A stretch of DNA of 64,000 bases from an uncultured Gammaproteobacteria bacterium. Lineage in GTDB: Bacteria > Patescibacteriota > Patescibacteriia > UBA10025 > JAHIVO01. Under the pieces are notes generated by a model, which was not told the DNA's origin, ran no database searches, and saw only the letters and a list, made by a program, of their open reading frames with translations. This document shows, in pieces, positions 3,558 through 63,576 of this stretch (the stretch's first letter is position 1; every line of letters begins with the position of its first letter). The position numbers and the translations under genes were made by a program. The stretch lies in NCBI GenBank assembly GCA_964628855.1, contig CAZVMV010000006.1, forward strand, positions 4,539 through 68,538, in the 5' to 3' direction.

Positions 3558-4877
3558 ATGAATCATTCATTGCCGCGCGTAGTATTGGCAGGCCGCACCA
3601 ATGCCGGGAAGTCAACCTTGTTTAATACCTTGGCCGGCGAAAAAAATTCCATAGTCTCTCCGATACCGGGGACAACCAGGGACCTAAACGTCAAGCCCAT
3701 AAATTGGCGCGGCTGTATTTTTGAGCTGGTCGATTCAGGGGGGCTAGACGCCGCGATCATCGGTCCGATCGAAAAAAAAGTACAGGCCAAGGCCCAGGAA
3801 GCGATCCAGCATGCCGAGGTCATAATTTTTGTAATTGACAGCCAGCAGGAGTTAACTGCCGTTGATTTTTCCATCGCCAAGTCCATAAAAAAGATGGGGG
3901 CCAAGATTGTCCTAGCCGCCAATAAAGCGGACAATACCCGCCAAAAACAGCGTCTCGCTCCCGAACTTTATAAGCTAGGGCTAGGAGAACCGCTTGCCCT
4001 CTCCGGACTGAATGGGACCGGGACGGGCGATCTTCTGGATAAAGTTGTAAATTTGCTCGAAAAAAATAACTACCAACCCGAAAAAAGTTTTACGAGGGTG
4101 TCAATAATTGGAAAAACAAATGTTGGCAAGTCATCGCTCATAAATGGACTATTGGGCAAAGAATGGGCTATTACTAGCCACCTGCCGCACACCACGCGCG
4201 AGCCTAGGGATACGATAATTGAATCCGACGGAAAAAACATAACACTGGTAGATACGGCCGGCTTGCGAAAACACGAAGCTAAGGCCGGACAAATAGAAAA
4301 AATCAGCGCCATAAAAACGCAAAACGCAATTCGGCGGTCCGATATCACGCTCTTCGTGACCGATGCCACGACGCCTTTATCCAAACAGGACATGTCTATC
4401 GCCCAACTCGCACTTGAATGCCATAATGGTATAATTATTGTGGTCAATAAATGGGACATGATACCGGAAAAAACCCCTCAAACCATGGATCTTTTCATCA
4501 ACCGGTACCAGCATTATTTTCCCTGGTTATCCTGGGCACCAATCATCTTTATTTCGGCACTTCATAAACAACGCCTGCATGACCTGATGAGGCTGATAAT
4601 CTCCGTACAGCAAGCTCGTAACAGGCGTATTCCACAAGAAAACCTGTCAAAAACTCTCGGCCATATCTCACTTCCCCGCGGACGAGTTTCAAACCATCCA
4701 GCCACCAAGCTCACCGGTCTCACCCAGACTGATGTTGACCCGCCGACCTTCATGCTCTATACCAATAGGCGCGATCCCATCAATTCCGCGATAATTAATA
4801 TTGTAGAGAAGCAACTAAGGACCGAATACGATTTCAACGGCACGCCTATTATCATTAACGTGCGAAAACGCAATTAA
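3558..4877 (+). CDS. der: ribosome-associated GTPase Der/EngA
   Basis: 439 aa with two GTPase domains (GRTNAGKST..DSGG..NKAD and GKTNVGKSS..DTAG..NKWD) plus a KH-like C-terminus. Confidence 0.92.
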   Translation: MNHSLPRVVLAGRTNAGKSTLFNTLAGEKNSIVSPIPGTTRDLNVKPINWRGCIFELVDSGGLDAAIIGPIEKKVQAKAQEAIQHAEVIIFVIDSQQELTAVDFSIAKSIKKMGAKIVLAANKADNTRQKQRLAPELYKLGLGEPLALSGLNGTGTGDLLDKVVNLLEKNNYQPEKSFTRVSIIGKTNVGKSSLINGLLGKEWAITSHLPHTTREPRDTIIESDGKNITLVDTAGLRKHEAKAGQIEKISAIKTQNAIRRSDITLFVTDATTPLSKQDMSIAQLALECHNGIIIVVNKWDMIPEKTPQTMDLFINRYQHYFPWLSWAPIIFISALHKQRLHDLMRLIISVQQARNRRIPQENLSKTLGHISLPRGRVSNHPATKLTGLTQTDVDPPTFMLYTNRRDPINSAIINIVEKQLRTEYDFNGTPIIINVRKRN

Positions 4878-4878
4878 T

Positions 4879-5409
4879 ATGATCCTTATCGTAGCACTGG
4901 GTAATCCGGAACCTGAATACGCCGGCACTCGGCACAACTTGGCTGTCGCAGCACTGAAGCCTTTGGCCCTGGATTCCGAAAGCAAATTTGATTCCCTGAT
5001 TTCTAAACCATACCCGCGTTCCGAAGTGCTGCTCGCTTTTCCCCAGACGTTTATGAATGAATCGGGAAAATCGGTTTCCCAGGTAAAAAACTTTTACAAA
5101 ATACCAGACGAAAACATTTGGGTTGTGCATGACGACGTCGACCTGCCATTCGGCACCGTTAGGGTCAGTTTCAATTCTTCCGCCGCCGGCCATCGTGGAG
5201 TCCAATCGGTAATCGAGGCAATTGGAACGCAAAACTTTTGGAGGATCAGAATGGGCATCGGCCGTCCGGCTAATTCCATCCCGACCGACGCATATGTCCT
5301 GCAAAAATTTACGCCTGAAGAAAAAAATAAACTAAATTCAATAACCGATTCAGTTATCGCTCATATTGCCTCATATTTAGGAAAAGGGATATTTGAAGAA
5401 ACTTTTTAA
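4879..5409 (+). CDS. pth: peptidyl-tRNA hydrolase
   Basis: 176 aa. Motifs ALGNPEPEYAGTRHN, FPQTFMNESG and HDDVDLPFG. Confidence 0.9.
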   Translation: MILIVALGNPEPEYAGTRHNLAVAALKPLALDSESKFDSLISKPYPRSEVLLAFPQTFMNESGKSVSQVKNFYKIPDENIWVVHDDVDLPFGTVRVSFNSSAAGHRGVQSVIEAIGTQNFWRIRMGIGRPANSIPTDAYVLQKFTPEEKNKLNSITDSVIAHIASYLGKGIFEETF

Positions 5410-5414
5410 ACAAT

Positions 5415-6488
5415 ATGGATACACAGGAAAAATTAGCGATTGACAAAATACTAAGGCTAGTCGCAGAACAAAAAGCTTCCGACTTACACTTGATGATCGG
5501 GAGCCACCCAGTGATCAGGATGAACAACAAACTTATCACCCTGGAAAATGAGTTGATAATAACCCGCGAATTCATGAGCGGTTTCATCCAAAGCGTCCTC
5601 GATCCTGAACAGTTATCCGCTCTGGAAAAAAACCGGGAAGTGGTACTGGCATACCAATTCCAAAAACAGACTCGTTTCCGTATCAATGTCTTTCACCAAA
5701 AAGGCCAGATCGCCGCATACCTACGCCTCATCGGAAACACGATTATGCCACTGCGGTCTCTGGGCCTGCCCAATATACTAGAATCGATGGCTGAGCTAAA
5801 AAAGGGACTGCTTATTTTTAGCGGCTCCTTTGGTTCTGGTAAAACGACCACTTCGGCCTCTTTGCTCGATTACATCAATAGAAATAGGTCGGCATATATT
5901 TTGACTGTGGAGAAACCGATTGAATACCTATTCAACAACCAAAAAAGCATTATTGAGCAGCGCGAGGTCGGCCGCGACACCAACAGTTTTGAACAAGCCT
6001 TGGCCTATGTCACCCAAGAGGACGTAGATATTGTTTTTTTATCTGAACTGCCTACACCGGCCGTGATACACCAAGTCATGAATATCGCCACATCAGGGCG
6101 GCTGGTTATCGCCAATCTAGAGGCGGATACGATCATTAAAACCCTAGAATTGATGATTAACAGTTTCCCGAAAGACGAACAACAACAAATACGCGAACAA
6201 TTAGCGGCAAACCTAGCAGGGATTGTTTGCCAAAGGCTCGTCCCCCGCCTTGGCGGTGGTCAGGTGGCTGTAGCAGAGATAATGACTTCGACGCCTCCGA
6301 TACAATCTCTCATCAAAGAAGGCTCCCTATTCCAAATCAACAACATCATCCTGACCTCACGGGCAGAGGGCATGGTCTCATTGGACTGGTCGCTGGCAGA
6401 ACTGGTAAAGACAAACGAAGTGCAGTTGGAGGATGCATTACAATATGCGAGCGATCCCCAGCAATTACGCTACATGTTAAGAGTATAA
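5415..6488 (+). CDS. pilT: type IV pilus retraction ATPase PilT-like
   Basis: 357 aa. Walker A GSFGSGKTTT, EQREVGRDT, and Walker B-like DVDIVFLSEL. Confidence 0.8.
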   Translation: MDTQEKLAIDKILRLVAEQKASDLHLMIGSHPVIRMNNKLITLENELIITREFMSGFIQSVLDPEQLSALEKNREVVLAYQFQKQTRFRINVFHQKGQIAAYLRLIGNTIMPLRSLGLPNILESMAELKKGLLIFSGSFGSGKTTTSASLLDYINRNRSAYILTVEKPIEYLFNNQKSIIEQREVGRDTNSFEQALAYVTQEDVDIVFLSELPTPAVIHQVMNIATSGRLVIANLEADTIIKTLELMINSFPKDEQQQIREQLAANLAGIVCQRLVPRLGGGQVAVAEIMTSTPPIQSLIKEGSLFQINNIILTSRAEGMVSLDWSLAELVKTNEVQLEDALQYASDPQQLRYMLRV

Positions 6489-57046: not shown

Positions 57047-57625
57047 TTAATATTTTGACAAGACATTAAGGATCAACTCCCTGTTTCTGTTCGCTTCCTG
57101 CTTACAGTCTTCGAGCGTCAAGAATTTGGTTTTTTGGTTCATCTTCTCCAGCGCATATTCGGCCGCTTCATCATGAGTCATGCCGCGCCGGCGTAAATCA
57201 GCAAGGAATATGGAGATGCCCTCTAAAGTTAAAAATTTAAAACACTCTGCATTTTTCATTACCTCTGCTTCTTTGGATTCTGTCGGGATCTGGTCGTGAT
57301 GCGCCTCGATGGCATTAAGAATAACTTTTTGGTCTTGGTCAGACATGCCCCACTCAGACAAAAAAGGTTTGGCAAAAGCCGCACTCGATTTGGTGTGATT
57401 TTGGTGAACCGGGCCACCTCGTTCCTCGTCAAAGATTGTATGCGCCAGATACAGGGCGATAACCACCAATCCAGGATTAACCCCGTGTTTTTTCGCCAAA
57501 AACTCCCCCTTTTTTACGGCTAATTCCGTTAGTCCCCAGGCAGGCGCATGATTTTTTTCGTATTGACGTTTGGCTAATTCGCGGGCTTTAACAATTATAT
57601 CATCCATAGTATTATGCGCGGTCAA
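57047..57625 (-). CDS. HD domain phosphohydrolase-like protein
   Basis: 192 aa with a His/Asp pattern (LYLAHTIFDEE, AIEAHHD). Confidence 0.6.
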   Translation of the reverse strand: MTAHNTMDDIIVKARELAKRQYEKNHAPAWGLTELAVKKGEFLAKKHGVNPGLVVIALYLAHTIFDEERGGPVHQNHTKSSAAFAKPFLSEWGMSDQDQKVILNAIEAHHDQIPTESKEAEVMKNAECFKFLTLEGISIFLADLRRRGMTHDEAAEYALEKMNQKTKFLTLEDCKQEANRNRELILNVLSKY

Positions 57626-60164
57626 TCAATTTTTGGACGAAGCGCAGTTTGGTAACTTCCGACATCAATGCCGCGGCAACTCCGGAGGTCAGGCACAGCG
57701 CAAATTGCCAAGTGGTCAGCACGCCAAATCCGAAAAGGCTGCGGACGCCCGGTATTACCAATGTCAGCAACAGGACAGAAATTGCCAGTCCGACTACCCA
57801 ACGCAGTGCCCGGTTTGGATGGTGTCTCATACTGTCAAACGACGTTCTGGTCCGTGACCTGTTGGCGATAATCAAACCGACATTGCCGATAACCAAGCTG
57901 GAGAATGCCAATGCCCTCGCCACGCCTTCCCCCCATTCATTTGATAATGCCAAGGCATAAATCGTAACGACAACCGCCAACACCCCGAATCCCTGCAACA
58001 CGCTGGTCCAGATTTGGGCTCGTCCAAATAATGGTTCACGGCTCGAACGCGGAGCGCGGGTCATAACATCCTTTTCCTCATGTTCCGCTTCGAAAACCAG
58101 CGTACAGGCCGGGTCAATGATTAATTCCAGAAACGCAATATGTATTGGCAGAAGCGCAAGAGGCCATTTCAAAAGTACTGATAGCAGTGCAATCCCGGCA
58201 ATGGGAATATGTACGGCAAAAATAAATGACATAGCCTTGCGGAGGTTGTCATAAATCCGGCGACCGGTTCGGACCGCGGCGACGATCGAAGTGAAATCAT
58301 CGTCCAGCAAAACTACGTCGGAAGCTTCTCGGGCTACGTCCGTGCCCCGACCACCCATAGCTACGCCGATATGAGCCGCTTTCAGTGCCGGCGCATCATT
58401 GACTCCATCTCCGGTCATGGCCACAATTTCTCCGCTGGCTTTGAGCGCCTGGACAATGTGTAATTTTTGTTCAGGAACAACCCGTGCAAAAACGTCCGTT
58501 TCCTTTATCAATCTGGCGATATCTTTCTTATGTGACTGTTCTAGCATGTCGCCTGTCATGACATGGATGGGAGGTTTCATCCCGATCTGCTCAGCAATAT
58601 GACGCGCCGTACCGGGATAATCGCCAGTAATCATTTTTACCCTGATACCCGCCGTTCGGCACTCGGCTACTGCTGCGGGGACGGCTGGCCGTATAGGATC
58701 AGCCAATCCGATCAGGCCAATCATCTTGAAATCAAAATCATGCTGCTGTGCTGGCAGTGATGTCGTCTGGGATTTGGCCACGGCGATGACCCGCAGCCCC
58801 ATATTTGCTAACTGCTCAATATTTTTTTCCAAAGCGGATTTTTCTGGCGCGGGCAAGTGGCACAAATCAGCCACCGCCTCTGGCGCTCCCTTAGCCGCCA
58901 CGATATATGAATCTTTCTTTGGCGTCATCCAGGCACGTGCCACGGAGAGCAGCTTGTCGGATAATGGATATTCGCGTATCTGTTGCCAGTTGGTGTGCAA
59001 ATGCCCGTCATGCCCAAATGCCCGTTCACCAAGTTCGCGCATGGCTTTTTCCATCGGATCAAATGGGTCGGGCGGCGATGCCAGGATGGCATATTCCACC
59101 AATGGATGGAGTTCTTCCGGCATAGCCCGTTGTTCGGCTGAAATCGAATAACAAGAATTGTCCACGCAGGCCGCGGCAACCGCCATTTTATTCTGGGTAA
59201 TCGTGCCGGTCTTGTCTGTACATAATACAGTGGCCGAGCCCAGAGTCTCCACCGCGGGTATGCGCCTCGTCAACACATTACGCTGGGCAATCCGCCAGGC
59301 ACCCAGTGCAAGGAATACGGTCATGACCACCGGGAATTCCTCCGGCAATGCGGACATGGCCAAAGCCAAACCGGCCAGCACACCACCCAGCCAATCGCCA
59401 CGCGTCAAACTGTAGACCAGTGCGACAACTATGCACAGTACCAGCCCGACGATGGCGAAAATATTTACCATACGCCTGGTTTGCCGCTGCAGCAGACTAT
59501 CCTCCTGCGTAAGCGTTTTCAGGACCAAGCCAATTTTCCCCACTTCAGTATGTACGCCAGTCGCTATAACTTCCGCTACTCCGCGGCCGCTCACGATGAG
59601 AGTACTGGAATAGACGCATGACTGATCACGGCCACCCGGCTTTATCCCGCCCGAACGGGGATCATGGTGGTGTTTTTGTACAGGCACTGATTCGCCGGTC
59701 AACAAAGACTCGTCTGCTCGGATGGTAAAAACCTTTAGCAGCTTGGCATCGGCCGGCACCCGGTCACCCTCCTCCAGCATTATAATATCGCCGCGTGCCA
59801 CTTCGCGACCTGCGATTCTTTTCACTACGCCATCACGTATTACACGAGCACGGGGGCTTGATAAATTCCTAAGTGCTTCCAGCGCCCTTTCGGTTTTTCT
59901 TTCCTGATAAAGCGTAATGCCGATTACCACGAGAATGGCTGCCAGCAGCAAACTTGCCTCCGCCCGATCTCCAATAAATAAATATATTGTGCCGCAAGCC
60001 AATAATAACAGCAGCATCGGTTCACGGATAACTTCTATTAATATATGCCAAACCGACCGCCGTTTGCCACTCGGCAGCTCATTATACCCTTCTTCCCTTA
60101 GGCGTTTTTGAGCTTCGATTTCCGATAATCCGTGCCATTTTTCGATCGTAACCTCAATTCCCAT
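57612..60164 (-). CDS. cation-transporting P-type ATPase (P2, Ca2+-ATPase-like)
   Basis: Motifs TGES, DKTGTIT, MITGD and GDGVNDAPALK, with 10 TM helices. Start trimmed to ATG 60164 because the longer ORF runs through tRNA-Ser. Confidence 0.9.
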   Translation of the reverse strand: MGIEVTIEKWHGLSEIEAQKRLREEGYNELPSGKRRSVWHILIEVIREPMLLLLLACGTIYLFIGDRAEASLLLAAILVVIGITLYQERKTERALEALRNLSSPRARVIRDGVVKRIAGREVARGDIIMLEEGDRVPADAKLLKVFTIRADESLLTGESVPVQKHHHDPRSGGIKPGGRDQSCVYSSTLIVSGRGVAEVIATGVHTEVGKIGLVLKTLTQEDSLLQRQTRRMVNIFAIVGLVLCIVVALVYSLTRGDWLGGVLAGLALAMSALPEEFPVVMTVFLALGAWRIAQRNVLTRRIPAVETLGSATVLCTDKTGTITQNKMAVAAACVDNSCYSISAEQRAMPEELHPLVEYAILASPPDPFDPMEKAMRELGERAFGHDGHLHTNWQQIREYPLSDKLLSVARAWMTPKKDSYIVAAKGAPEAVADLCHLPAPEKSALEKNIEQLANMGLRVIAVAKSQTTSLPAQQHDFDFKMIGLIGLADPIRPAVPAAVAECRTAGIRVKMITGDYPGTARHIAEQIGMKPPIHVMTGDMLEQSHKKDIARLIKETDVFARVVPEQKLHIVQALKASGEIVAMTGDGVNDAPALKAAHIGVAMGGRGTDVAREASDVVLLDDDFTSIVAAVRTGRRIYDNLRKAMSFIFAVHIPIAGIALLSVLLKWPLALLPIHIAFLELIIDPACTLVFEAEHEEKDVMTRAPRSSREPLFGRAQIWTSVLQGFGVLAVVVTIYALALSNEWGEGVARALAFSSLVIGNVGLIIANRSRTRTSFDSMRHHPNRALRWVVGLAISVLLLTLVIPGVRSLFGFGVLTTWQFALCLTSGVAAALMSEVTKLRFVQKLIDRA

Positions 60165-60194
60165 GGCGGAGTATTTAAGATTAATTTTTTTATT

Positions 60195-60283
60195 CGGAGA
60201 GGGCGAGATTCGAACTCGCGAAGGGCTTTTGGCCCTTACTTGCTTTCCAAGCAAGCGCACTAGACCAACTATGCGACCTCTCC
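60195..60283 (-). tRNA. tRNA-Ser (GGA), long variable arm, no encoded CCA
   Basis: GGAGAGG..CTTGC-TTGGAAA-GCAAG-variable arm GGGCC-AAAA-GCCC..GCGAG-TTCGAAT-CTCGC-CCTCTCC-G. Confidence 0.9.
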
Positions 60284-60371
60284 AAAAGGCCGTTCCATAA
60301 TGTTTAAAGTATACCATACCATTTTTTTACCAAAAAGAAAAGACTCCGTTAATCATAAAAAATCCCAGGTC

Positions 60372-60400
60372 TTGACACATTTCTCCTTGTTCCCTAAGAT
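60372..60400 (+). promoter_or_regulatory. promoter TTGACA-17-TAAGAT
   Basis: TTGACA at 60372..60377 and TAAGAT at 60395..60400. Confidence 0.55.
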
Positions 60401-60425
60401 GCGGGTACGGACAAGAGGAGGATCC

Positions 60426-60668
60426 ATGATCTTTGCCGTAATCGGCCCGATCGTAATCCCCGCATGTCCTATCCTTCTCGCTGATCCGAATGGGTTGGCC
60501 GGGAGGCAGACGGCGTTTGCGCTAAACTCTCTAGGTTCATCTGAACCGGGTGTTAGGGAGGCAAATGCCCATGTTTTTTCCTCATCAAAGGTCACATGTC
60601 GCCCACAAGCAGATGACAGATGGCATTGGACCAAGATGGGGAAGATGCGGGGGGTAAGGCTCTTTTAG
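60426..60668 (+). CDS. candidate 80-aa protein (alternatively part of a ~385-nt structured RNA)
   Basis: GGAGG (60417..60421) + 4 nt + ATG. Product MIFAVIGPIVIPACPILLADPNGLAGRQ...WHWTKMGKMRGVRLF. The region is stop-poor on both strands and rich in helices, so coding status is unresolved. Confidence 0.35.
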   Translation: MIFAVIGPIVIPACPILLADPNGLAGRQTAFALNSLGSSEPGVREANAHVFSSSKVTCRPQADDRWHWTKMGKMRGVRLF

Positions 60669-60758
60669 GAAAGTTGCTTGCTGCCAGTATGCAGCTTTCA
60701 TTCTGGCCACGGCCAGTCTAGCCCACACGGGTTGAGCCTTACCGGGCACAAATGAAAA

Positions 60759-60791
60759 GGACGCTTCCTGCGAAGCGTCCTCTATTTTTTT
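60759..60791. terminator. bidirectional rho-independent terminator shared by the 60372 unit (+) and the helicase gene (-)
   Basis: GGACGCTTC-CTGC-GAAGCGTCC followed by TCTATTTTTTT on the + strand and TTTTCATTT on the - strand. Confidence 0.8.
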
Positions 60792-60802
60792 GTCTACTCC
60801 TC

Positions 60803-63109
60803 CTAATTCAATTTACGATACGTACCCAAAGCGGCAGAATATTCTGCCAAGACTGAGAAGATGGTCCGAACCTCTTCACTGTCACTGCCCACGAAAGTCG
60901 CCATGTCACCAAGAACCACCAGCCTATCCTGCGCTCTGGAGAATGCCACCCGTAACCGGTTGACGTTTCTGTTGAAACCGATGTCACCTTTTGCGTTTGA
61001 CCTAACCATCGACAGGATAATTATCCGGCGTTGGGAGCCCTGGAATGCGTCTACCGTATTGACCACGCTATTTAGCAGGTCTTCGGTATCCAGCTGGTCA
61101 AAATTGATGATCGTGCGCCAAGTTGCCAGTCTTTCGTCAACAGCAAACGCCTGACGGAGTCTGCCGCGGATGAGTTCGATTTGCGCCCGGTAAGGGGTGA
61201 TGATCCCTATCTCATCAAGCGCGCCGCCTTTGCGTAAATGTTTCACGACATATTTGACTGCCAAGTTGGCTTCCCTGGGATTGAAGAAAGACGTCCCACT
61301 GCTTTGTTCTGCTTTGCCGCGAGTGGCGCTTGTATCATCAAACTCCACCTGGCCGTAATTGGCCGGGTCAAACCTTCCGACAATTAACCTGCCACCATAG
61401 AATAGCTTGCTGACCAAGTCACAAATGGCCGGCAACGAACGTCGGTTGATGCATAACAGGCTTTCCTTTAGCAGTGACTGCTTAAGCACAACATTAAACC
61501 AACCGTCAGAAAAATCCCTTATGTCACTTTCCGAATGGCCGTGCTCCTCCAAGTAACGGCGCGCGTCAGGTGTGATCTCCAGGTTTCCCAGTTGGTCAGG
61601 ATCGCCGATGAAAATGACCTTTTCCGTGACCAAAGATACGATCGGAAGCAACTCATACAAATGCCCACGGGATGCTTCATCAACAAAGGCGATTTCAAAA
61701 GTCATCCCCTCTTGTCGTAAGGCTGACAAGGTCTTGTCGGTCAGGAACGAGGCCATGGTACAGGCGATGATGACGCCGCGGCCGCTTTCGGACAACTGCC
61801 GAATTGCGTCCACCTCTTCAATTACCTGCGCTTTTTCATGGGGCTCGTCATGGCCCCTGGACATGCCTTCCCATTCCCGTTCGGAACGGTGCAGATGCAG
61901 GCAATCGGATGCCACGCTTTCCGGATCGTTTCCGAGTCGGAAAATCTGGTCCGGCACGCCAGTCGCCTCTTCGACAAAATGTACCAGAGCATCTAGCCCG
62001 CGGTTACTGTGTGAAATCAGGATAATCGTCCGTCCTTTTTTCAGGAACTGCCTGACAGCACGTGACGACAGGAAAGTTTTGCCCGTGCCGGCTGGACCCT
62101 GGACAACACTAACTGCCCGTTGGCTGGCGATATCCAGGAGCGCATGCTGTTGGGAATCGTCATCTTCGAACATCCGTGCTTCGTCCGGTTTCAGGAATAT
62201 GCTCGCGCATTGACGCGCACCGGCATTGTTCGTATTGCCTGCAATGACAGCCAATGGCAAGCTTGGCAGACGGCCAAACTCGACCTGCCTGCACATTTCC
62301 GCCTGTTGCTCCGGAATCCCGCAGGATAAAACCGGCTCGAAAGAAACCAGGTCGTTGATTTGCCCGATCGGCAAGTGCTCGATAAACGAAAAACGAATTT
62401 CCGTCTCAAGCACCGCATCGACGACTGCAGGAACTATATTCCCGCCACTGTCAAAAAAATTGACCTCTGCCTCAGGACGAAATACCGGCATGCCCTTATA
62501 AGTATACTCGGGCTTAAGCGGCAGCGTCACTCGGCTACGTTTCTGTAATGGTTTTCGCTGTACCGGCAGATTAAAAGCGCAGTTAAACGACATGCCACTC
62601 ACATCTAGTAGCCATTGCAGATACCAATCCAAGTAAGTCGCAGAGACTGCCAACATGCTTCTGAAAAGGCCGCCAAGAAGATCTGAAGGGGCATAAACCA
62701 GCCCGGTCAGCGTTGGCCGGAAAATATTCCATTCATCAGTGGGCTCGATTAGTTTCTGTCGTGCCGGACGGAATTGGCCAATGATTTCTATGAACTGGTC
62801 CCAATCACGGAACCAATAAGTGTCACGGCAGTCTTTGCCGAAAATCACCCTGACCCTAGGCGAAAAATTCTTTTGCCCGCCCTGACAATGGATGACCTGC
62901 GCTTGCGGCCAACGCTGCTTGCATTTGGTCGCATCGCCGATGCCACGGTTAATCACGATGATCAGATCAGGATCTCCGGTGACGGCACTGACGCTGGCTG
63001 AGTGCAATATAAATCCAATCGCCCGCCTGGTCAGCTGGGCAGTGAATTCACTTTCACCATCAGCCAACACAACAATTCTCGAAAACTGCATCTCCATGTA
63101 TATCTCCAT
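60803..63109 (-). CDS. Upf1-like superfamily 1 helicase with an uncharacterised N-terminal ~330 aa
   Basis: 768 aa. Motifs VVQGPAGTGKTF (I), FVDEASRG (II), FIGDPDQLG (III), ITPYRAQ, VDAFQGSQRRIIILSMVRSN (V) and RLRVAFSRAQDRLVVLG (VI). ATG 63097 has a GGAG 6 nt upstream and may be the true start. Confidence 0.85.
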   Translation of the reverse strand: MEIYMEMQFSRIVVLADGESEFTAQLTRRAIGFILHSASVSAVTGDPDLIIVINRGIGDATKCKQRWPQAQVIHCQGGQKNFSPRVRVIFGKDCRDTYWFRDWDQFIEIIGQFRPARQKLIEPTDEWNIFRPTLTGLVYAPSDLLGGLFRSMLAVSATYLDWYLQWLLDVSGMSFNCAFNLPVQRKPLQKRSRVTLPLKPEYTYKGMPVFRPEAEVNFFDSGGNIVPAVVDAVLETEIRFSFIEHLPIGQINDLVSFEPVLSCGIPEQQAEMCRQVEFGRLPSLPLAVIAGNTNNAGARQCASIFLKPDEARMFEDDDSQQHALLDIASQRAVSVVQGPAGTGKTFLSSRAVRQFLKKGRTIILISHSNRGLDALVHFVEEATGVPDQIFRLGNDPESVASDCLHLHRSEREWEGMSRGHDEPHEKAQVIEEVDAIRQLSESGRGVIIACTMASFLTDKTLSALRQEGMTFEIAFVDEASRGHLYELLPIVSLVTEKVIFIGDPDQLGNLEITPDARRYLEEHGHSESDIRDFSDGWFNVVLKQSLLKESLLCINRRSLPAICDLVSKLFYGGRLIVGRFDPANYGQVEFDDTSATRGKAEQSSGTSFFNPREANLAVKYVVKHLRKGGALDEIGIITPYRAQIELIRGRLRQAFAVDERLATWRTIINFDQLDTEDLLNSVVNTVDAFQGSQRRIIILSMVRSNAKGDIGFNRNVNRLRVAFSRAQDRLVVLGDMATFVGSDSEEVRTIFSVLAEYSAALGTYRKLN

Positions 63110-63196: not shown

Positions 63197-63224
63197 TTGA
63201 CTATCAGTGCAGGCATGCTAGTCT
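63197..63224 (+). promoter_or_regulatory. promoter TTGACT-16-TAGTCT, back-to-back with the helicase -35 box
   Basis: TTGACT at 63197..63202 and TAGTCT at 63219..63224. The palindrome ATGCTAG-TCTT-CTAGCAT (63215..63232) overlaps the -10. Confidence 0.4.
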
Positions 63225-63259
63225 TCTAGCATATCAAACCACGGAGCAAAGGAGGGATT

Positions 63260-63427
63260 GTGCTCTTTCGATCTCAGGTAAGAAGACTCGTTCTCCTTTC
63301 CGTGGCCCTAGCGTATTCGCGCGTCTGTAATTTTGGCCAGTTTTGTGGACTGCCCGCCAGAGCAGGCGCGCCAACTAACCGGCGACTGAATCGCGACTAT
63401 CGACGATGGCCAGTCGGTTTTACCTAG
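63260..63427 (+). CDS. candidate 55-aa peptide (alternatively part of a ~300-nt structured RNA)
   Basis: AAGGAGGG + ATT + GTG. Manual translation: MLFRSQVRRLVLLSVALAYSRVCNFGQFCGLPARAGAPTNRRLNRDYRRWPVGFT. It falls below the ORF-track length cut-off. The SD and start are enclosed in a hairpin. Confidence 0.3.
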   Translation: MLFRSQVRRLVLLSVALAYSRVCNFGQFCGLPARAGAPTNRRLNRDYRRWPVGFT

Positions 63428-63493
63428 CGGCTACGGAACAGGGACTTCCTGTGCGGTTTGCACCGAAGTCTCTTAAGTTGTTTCTTGGACCTT

Positions 63494-63529
63494 GGCCGCC
63501 TCCTGCACCCGGAGACGGCCCTTTTTTAT
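63494..63529 (+). terminator. rho-independent terminator
   Basis: GGCCGCCTCC-TGCACCC-GGAGACGGCC (10 bp with 1 mismatch) followed by CTTTTTTAT. Confidence 0.75.
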
Positions 63530-63576
63530 CCAAAAACAAAGCAGGCTGGACGCGCAGCCTACTCTGTTATTTTTTC

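Follow-up and report, generated by a model that had tools for sequence, protein, structure and literature searches.

Does a stand-alone transcription unit of ~385 nucleotides (nt) in a Patescibacteria genome encode a small protein or a large structured RNA? A first-pass annotation, made from the letters alone, left this choice open for a unit at 60372 to 60791 of a 64,000-nt stretch of contig CAZVMV010000006.1 (assembly GCA_964628855.1). We call this stretch the window and give positions in its coordinates unless another locus is named. Comparison with related loci indicates that both sides of the choice hold, and that neither does so in its plain form. On sequence evidence, the unit belongs to a previously undescribed family of folded RNAs that carry an open reading frame (ORF) and are paired with an Upf1-like helicase gene, so far only in Patescibacteria. 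Four findings go beyond what the annotation had described: the helix that closes the central part of the fold, the fact that relatives keep the frame open, a patch that is hypervariable, and the partner helicase.

The RNA fold and its conservation

Twelve lineages were available for comparison: the window and loci L001, L003, L004, L033, L051, L052, L053, L055, L057, L058, and L060. The plus strand of the unit in the window has a minimum free energy (MFE) of -168.6 kcal/mol, compared with -130.4 ± 5.7 kcal/mol for dinucleotide shuffles (z = -6.73, 0/100 shuffles as good), which bears out the earlier impression of more structure than a 3' untranslated region would be expected to have. The minus strand gave z = -2.99. 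In 11 of the 12 lineages the plus-strand z value fell between -4.3 and -7.7 (L001, -6.07; L003, -6.09; L004, -4.27; L033 copy 1, -5.42; L051, -5.2; L052, -6.2; L055, -5.2; L057, -5.1; L058, -6.5; L060, -7.7).

The nested helices that had been read by eye in the 3' third were recovered in the MFE fold, including the pairing of GGTAAGGCTC (60653-60662) with GAGCCTTACC (60734-60743) and the hairpins at 60669-60699 and 60703-60716, as was the hairpin at 60534-60547. Folding extends beyond the 3' third, with a long-range helix, Pc, closing a central domain of three hairpins (H1 to H3). The 3' strand of Pc abuts a second helix, Pd, which closes a 3' domain (Table 1). Inside Pd are a junction, UUUUAG, that contains the stop codon of the frame, and the hairpins at 60669-60699, 60703-60716, and 60720-60733. 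In the lineages examined in detail, the order of elements (Pc, H1 with AGGCAR, H2, H3, Pc, Pd with the 3' domain) was constant and the spacings were similar, and Pc and H1 were present in the unconstrained MFE fold of 6/6 sequences tested.

Compensatory changes were found in Pc, Pd, and H1. Because whole-length MAFFT alignment with RNAalifold on six units misaligned the distant sequences, and recovered H1 only, Pc and Pd were tested on chosen segments. Over seven lineages, Pc had two-sided changes at 7/7 pairs with 100% of cells paired, and Pd at 5/10 pairs with 97% of cells paired. Jointly, 98.3% of cells were paired and 12/17 pairs had changed on both sides, a level of pairing that 0/500 shuffles matched; the covariation score was 0.843 versus 0.284 for shuffles, and slid controls were 27 to 50% paired. 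For H1 on the unguided MAFFT alignment, 91% of cells were paired and 7/13 pairs had changed on both sides (0/500 shuffles reached this), and a covariance model of H1, R1, matched all six training units as well as L051 (37.7 bits). When 35 pairs were followed over five lineages, compensatory changes occurred in 25 columns, compared with a maximum of 18 in 2,000 shuffles.

Substitutions between the window and L001 were spread over codon positions in a way unlike that of the neighboring genes. Identity at positions 1/2/3 was 0.71/0.77/0.70 in the unit versus 0.80/0.88/0.52 in the helicase gene and 0.77/0.90/0.42 in the P-type ATPase gene, both with saturated third positions. Conservation was highest past the stop codon, in the 3' domain, which was ~96% identical to that of L001. 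Thus, where the annotation had asked for covariation to be set against codon-periodic conservation, we found compensatory pairs and, in the closest pair of relatives, no three-periodic conservation. When the window was compared with L001, only the apex of H3 (~60592-60628) was saturated with changes, and it was also the sole strongly diverged part between two tandem copies of the unit in L033, which are otherwise ~99% identical; its length was unchanged in both comparisons. Outside this patch, the L033 copies differ at few positions. Two of the differences fall within the frame, one a U-A/U-G swap in the stem of H1 and the other an altered tetraloop, and each changes an amino acid. The apex was also considered as a guide against phage DNA, and three 20-mers from it had no exact match in viral_contigs, which is a weak test.

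The unit matched no known RNA family. The check with Rfam 15 that the annotation had called for returned nothing but the neighboring tRNA-Ser, at gathering score or E ≤ 10, with RNase P, tmRNA, SRP, 6S, OLE, ROOL, GOLLD, raiA, and HEARO among the models. In 11 related loci, only tRNAs were found at gathering score. The absence of RNase P RNA, tmRNA, and SRP RNA, judged earlier by eye, agrees with this result and with ARAGORN, which found no tmRNA in the window. Nothing in the literature searched describes a unit of this kind. Taken together, these data support well the view that the predicted ~385-nt transcription unit encodes a compact two-domain RNA, with a central domain closed by Pc, a 3' domain closed by Pd, and a terminator.

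Table 1. Predicted features of the unit, its helicase partner, and the tandem copies in L033
Feature	Position	Strand	Basis or remark
Sigma-70-type promoter, TTGACA-17-TAAGAT	60372..60400	+	Consensus scan, 10/12 consensus matches
Shine-Dalgarno-like AGAGGAGGA (60414-60422), spacer TCC (3 nt), ATG at 60426	60414..60428	+	
80-codon reading frame, stop TAG at 60666-60668	60426..60668	+	
5' hairpin GAUC..GCCG-UAAU-CGGC..GAUC, within the first codons	60426..60454	+	MFE fold
Pc 5' strand, CCCCGCA, of the long-range helix closing the central domain	60458..60464	+	MFE fold
Hairpin H1 (CCUUCU...GGGAGG) and conserved AGGCAG junction	60473..60509	+	Covariation, covariance model
Hairpin H2 (GGCGUUUGC...GCAAAUGCC), tip GGUUC-AUCU-GAACC	60512..60569	+	
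Hairpin H3, base UUCCUCA/UGGGGAA conserved, apex (~60592-60628) hypervariable	60578..60643	+	
Pc 3' strand, UGCGGGG, abutting Pd	60646..60652	+	MFE fold
3' domain: 10-bp helix Pd (GGUAAGGCUC/GAGCCUUACC) around junction UUUUAG and three hairpins	60653..60743	+	
Intrinsic terminator: 10-pair stem with a 4-nt loop at 60758-60781, then CTATTTTTTT	60758..60791	+	
Upf1-like superfamily 1 (SF1) helicase, 768 aa, family-specific N-terminal region of ~300 aa	60803..63109	-	Pfam AAA_11/AAA_12
Tandem unit copies in L033	4855-5250 and 5628-6023		~99% identical except a 40-nt patch

The outline of the unit given by the annotation was accurate apart from small corrections. Promoter, ORF, and perfect Shine-Dalgarno element are all in place, with a 3-nt spacer (TCC) rather than one of 4 nt, and transcription would start near 60407. 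The terminator is likewise present, its stem counted here as 10 pairs from 60758 instead of 9 bp from 60759. As for the two stop-poor shadow ORFs, that of 122 aa proved to be the 80-codon frame extended upstream and that of 93 aa lies on the minus strand. This -35/-10 pair also precedes the unit in L001, L003, L004, L033 (both copies), L052, L053, L057, and L060, and 10/12 lineages have a GGAGG, GAGG, or AAGGA element 5 to 10 nt upstream of the start codon. The region of this ribosome-binding site (RBS) is predicted to be mostly paired, with a probability of being unpaired of 0.25 in the window and 0.24 to 0.61 over the lineages; an alternative partner for the Shine-Dalgarno region, AUCCUUCUC (60470-60478), can be read from the sequence.

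A convergent helicase gene

The gene facing the unit encodes a protein with Pfam matches to AAA_12 (4e-36) and AAA_11 (3.5e-13), whose best solved relatives are Upf1/NAM7 chains (1e-20). Its Walker A motif is GPAGTGKT, of which GPAGTGK is invariant in our alignment, and its core (residues 317 to 756) matches the PADLOC MkoA models (8.8e-61). By these sequence features, the predicted protein qualifies as an Upf1-like SF1B helicase. AlphaFold2 gave a predicted local distance difference test (pLDDT) score of 57 with a poor N-terminal region, and a search of viral contigs returned two matches only, at 24 to 25% identity and within the helicase core.

Unit and helicase gene are convergent and abutting in 12/12 helicase loci. 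The outer neighbors vary, and include PPDK, an ABC transporter, DeoC, Ddl, and PolA. Among the collected loci, tblastn found the helicase confined to those with the unit. Neither unit nor helicase was found in L045, the 14-kb contig of a close relative with a promoter block that matches that of the window exactly, or in 30 other 8-kb stretches around tRNA-Ser genes. The terminator of the unit also scores on the minus strand, directly past the helicase stop codon. The 3' end of the helicase mRNA is the sole minus-strand transcript expected to enter the unit. No promoter-like site was found on the minus strand between 59800 and 61200 by a consensus scan, which is a weak test. We consider it well supported that unit and helicase together make up an accessory module of two genes, which has so far been seen in Patescibacteria alone.

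The relatives were reached by several routes. L001, a diverged relative on a 27-kb metagenome contig, was found through the translated frame; in it, as in the window, the P-type ATPase is followed by tRNA-Ser(GGA), the unit, and the helicase. L003 and L004 are Patescibacteria genomes reached via helicase relatives, with the unit at the equivalent place on the opposite strand. A scan with the unusual tRNA-Ser sequence yielded 35 Patescibacteria loci, with the unit confined to the genomes already known and one new one, L033. This is a complete Candidatus Kerfeldbacteria chromosome with two tandem copies, the second convergent with a helicase homolog. An exhaustive profile search gave ~45 clusters of full-length helicase relatives, of which seven were looked up (L051, L052, L053, L055, L057, L058, and L060). 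In each of these loci, a small convergent frame lies directly downstream of the helicase gene, mostly behind a promoter-like site, and is followed by a terminator that adjoins the helicase stop. A metagenome scan with the promoter block added no further lineage.

Two further observations were made at these loci. In L033, the sequences upstream of the two promoters have diverged, and a Lys-rich ORF of 61 codons lies between the copies (5320-5505, minus strand). Small ORFs beside the tRNA-Ser gene of L015, another Patescibacteria genome, looked similar but were rejected as homologs (z = -2.2, no match to the hidden Markov model [HMM] or covariance model); there, at 5828-6440 on the plus strand, a promoter is followed by two small ORFs of 82 and ~76 codons that resemble ordinary proteins.

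The reading frame and what the unit may do

In 12/12 lineages, one plus-strand frame is open for 65 to 101 codons from a start codon. The chance of this per lineage, from dinucleotide shuffling, is 0.013 to 0.10, and the remaining plus-strand frames contain two to six stops each. The openness of the frame is beyond coincidence; it is selectively kept open. Since this holds in every lineage, a purely non-coding reading is incomplete, and the large structured RNA foreseen by the annotation is borne out by fold and covariation but not as a purely non-coding molecule.

The alternative that the annotation had named, a plain small protein, fares similarly: the frame is kept, but a conventional protein is not supported. 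The three frames scored 177/181/150 between the window and L001, that is, with no frame preference, and the first 18 residues of these closest relatives are wholly different. The hairpin within these codons is nevertheless retained, being built in L001, at the equivalent 5' position, from the unrelated sequence CUUUGCGA/UCGUAAAG. Six lineages read the RNA motif AGGCAR as R-Q and two read it as A-G-N, and UUUUCC and Pd also shift frame between lineages. In codon usage, the frame scores no higher than the 3rd percentile of the genes of its own genome, and AlphaFold2 gave the peptide no confident fold (mean pLDDT of 47). The window peptide had no match in Pfam or NCBIfam, and among ten relatives' peptides there was one sub-threshold Pfam match (L060), judged to be chance. 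A peptide profile search of 5.8 billion proteins returned nothing beyond four lineages already known.

The frame traverses the central domain and the 3' strand of Pc. In most lineages it also takes in the 5' strands of both closing helices, Pc and Pd, and ends in the junction just behind Pd; in L051 it continues through the 3' domain. Translation and the compact fold should therefore be mutually exclusive, and since the RBS region is predicted to be mostly paired, translation would be restrained and conditional. The reading we prefer, tentatively and at slightly less than even confidence, is that the helicase has its cognate partner in the folded RNA and that translation through the closing helices switches the fold. 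The conserved functional product would then be the folded RNA rather than the peptide, and the RNA could act as a substrate or decoy that restrains the helicase, or as a reporter RNA on which the helicase acts. A translating ribosome would have to melt Pc and Pd, and the translation state would decide which form of the RNA the helicase encounters.

This arrangement would be of interest for several reasons. Patescibacteria genomes are of ~1 Mb and have little spare DNA, yet 12 lineages keep a strongly folded unit of ~400 nt, with a near-consensus promoter, beside a rare helicase. We know of almost no large structured RNA classes from Patescibacteria, and none was found in the literature searched; the unit would add a new one. 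It would also offer an unusually clean case of one sequence selected as both fold and open frame, with mutually exclusive states, in which the coupling of translation and structure can be tested. The unit would also give the first hint that a Upf1-like helicase of bacteria has a cognate RNA; the roles of this group in bacteria (e.g., in Mokosh defense) are poorly understood.

Several observations weigh against a folded RNA as the helicase's partner. Promoter, terminator, and fold are predictions throughout. L053 folds weakly (z = -1.6), and Pd lies outside the MFE fold of L003 and L033, where forcing it costs 3.7 and 2.0 kcal/mol, respectively. The Pc and Pd segments were chosen by hand, which favors pairing, and H1 alone was tested on an unguided alignment. 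The H1 covariance model misses L055, L057, L058, and L060, for which the family link is one of position, anatomy, and fold. The adjacency of unit and helicase could partly reflect shared ancestry, because tRNA-Ser adjoins the unit in 7/12 lineages. The H3 apex as an antisense to the helicase mRNA, the sole base-pairing candidate examined, gave duplex energies inside the shuffled range. Lastly, the ORF frame was the best-scoring one in 22/66 pairs, versus ~7 expected, and scored 62 versus ≤30 in the other frames between the window and L033. This weak protein-level signal, concentrated in a segment (P.LLA..N.L.GRQ.A) that is also hairpin H1, means that the peptide may matter.

In a possible but rather doubtful alternative, the unit would be the structured message of a small and rapidly evolving peptide effector, like a type I toxin mRNA. 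Its fold would stabilize the message and silence its translation by sequestering the Shine-Dalgarno element, until the helicase or another trigger opens it. Type I toxin mRNAs include hok/sok, aapA1/isoA1, ldr, and txpA/ratA; their peptides are usually under 60 aa, hydrophobic, and directed to the membrane, and tandem copies are common at such loci. The unit resembles them as a predicted stand-alone transcript of ~400 nt that has a promoter and a terminator of its own, a conserved and extensive long-range fold, a predicted sequesterable RBS, tandem copies (L033), and a small ORF whose predicted product is poorly conserved and often hydrophobic. The frame and start codon are present in all lineages and the Shine-Dalgarno-like element in most, the peptide motif is common to the window, L001, L033, and L051, and the in-frame indels between the window and L001 are all multiples of 3, the first 1-nt indel coming directly past the stop. 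On the other hand, the N terminus, hydrophobic in most lineages, is neither hydrophobic nor conserved in L001, the closest relative, or in L003, the frame exceeds the typical length of a type I toxin and spans the folded core, and no antisense RNA gene was found near the unit by the weak promoter scan of the window. The lack of frame preference in the closest pair, the frame-shifted motifs, the atypical codon usage, the low pLDDT, and the absence of a Pfam family also count against a peptide, as does the position of the best-conserved part past the stop. To our knowledge, constant linkage to a helicase gene occurs in no type I system. Should the unit be no more than such a small-ORF message, it would still carry this class into Patescibacteria and link it to a helicase.

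A more specific and more speculative idea, which we rate as unlikely, is that unit and helicase form a prokaryotic two-gene system of a new kind, namely a translation-sensing surveillance, abortive-infection, or toxin-antitoxin-like switch and a bacterial counterpart of the sensing of terminating ribosomes by Upf1-type proteins. In most lineages, the ribosome would terminate at the conserved junction ahead of the structured 3' domain, the helicase would read or reset the state of the fold, and the H3 apex would provide specificity. As in type III toxin-antitoxin systems (ToxIN; AvcID, PMC10511110), the two genes would be those of a protein and an adjacent cognate structured RNA. Unlike in those systems, the unit has no tandem repeats (none were found in 60300-60850), is convergent with its partner, and carries a conserved open frame, and the partner is a helicase instead of an endoribonuclease or deaminase. 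Mokosh, which pairs the MkoA helicase with a PLD nuclease, shares the Upf1-like SF1 group and the helicase core; the match is limited to that core, no PLD domain was found in the helicase and no PLD gene in the listed neighborhoods, and Mokosh has no RNA component.

Less probable still is a purely non-coding structured RNA, in which the Shine-Dalgarno-like element only stabilizes the 5' end by attracting a ribosome or 30S subunit and the frame has no function of its own. Stabilizers of the STAB-SD type are known in Firmicutes, and all of the structural evidence, the lack of three-periodicity, and the shifting of the frame relative to RNA motifs agree with such a role; it leaves unexplained the stop-free frame in 12/12 lineages, whose combined chance is far below 1e-5 even when no more than four lineages are taken as independent. 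The unit shares with OLE, ROOL, GOLLD, and raiA a multidomain RNA of several hundred nt, covariation, a limited range of lineages, and fixed neighbor genes, but those RNAs have no conserved reading frame and none of their models matches it. In being selected as both structure and reading frame, it resembles the dual-function bacterial RNAs RNAIII/hld, SgrS/SgrT, and SR1/SR1P. In these, the ORF is a short separate segment encoding a conserved peptide, whereas the frame of the unit traverses the closing helices and its peptide is hardly conserved. The unit is thus outside every family tested, and its pairing with the helicase matches no described system.

A very divergent universal RNA (RNase P RNA, tmRNA, 6S, or SRP RNA) that the Rfam models fail to recognize in Patescibacteria is highly improbable: the size would suit RNase P RNA or tmRNA and the host lineage is poorly sampled, but the Rfam and ARAGORN searches were negative, the architecture has no end-to-end pairing, tRNA-like domain, or P4-type strands, and absence from the equivalent place in L045 with duplication in L033 makes it a poor fit to an essential single-copy RNA.

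Minor observations around the unit

A Logan contig (L002, SRR14932662, 982 nt) is identical to the window, starting at 60412, ~5 nt past the predicted transcription start, and extending into the helicase gene. If SRR14932662 is a metatranscriptome, the start of this contig would hint at where the transcript begins.

Between the tRNA-Ser gene and the unit there is a conserved block, AGTATAnCATAsCA-(11 nt)-AAAAGAAAAG, at 60305-60345 in the window, 9886-9920 in L001, 12879-12913 in L003, and 4747-4781 in L033. Its opposite strand partly reads as the promoter of this tRNA (TGnTATGnTATACT). Among 41 loci it was found in L001, L003, L016, and L033 only, all with the unit; L043 and L045, relatives added later, have the block but lack the unit. 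The 5' half of tRNA-Ser(GGA) is also repeated in partial copies between tRNA and unit, at ~13400-13480 in L004 and at ~4560-4610 and ~4690-4715 in L033. Those in L033 adjoin a small GIY-YIG-type ORF (4274-4525, minus strand), and a GIY-YIG gene is nearby in L004; the partial copies resemble scars left by a mobile endonuclease gene or by insertions that recurred at the tRNA.

On the other side of the tRNA-Ser gene, the longest ORF of the P-type ATPase (57612-60317, minus strand) runs through the tRNA gene itself. The gene probably begins at the ATG near 60167, from which the 851-aa translation with the Pfam ATPase domains is read, so that the listed 901-aa ORF would be over-extended.

Finally, a second small promoter-to-terminator unit lies at 63198-63535 on the plus strand, in the space that separates the helicase start from the PPDK-like gene. 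Its parts are TTGACT-17-TAGTCT, AAGGAGGG, a frame of 55 codons (MLFRSQ...RRWPVGFT) that opens with GTG, and a terminator. Its fold has z = -4.57; it has no Rfam match and is not detected by the HMM of the first unit. It is kept in L001 and in L045, in the latter without the helicase, and its stop falls at a constant codon (TAG or TGA). This second unit may be another ORF-bearing structured RNA of these genomes.

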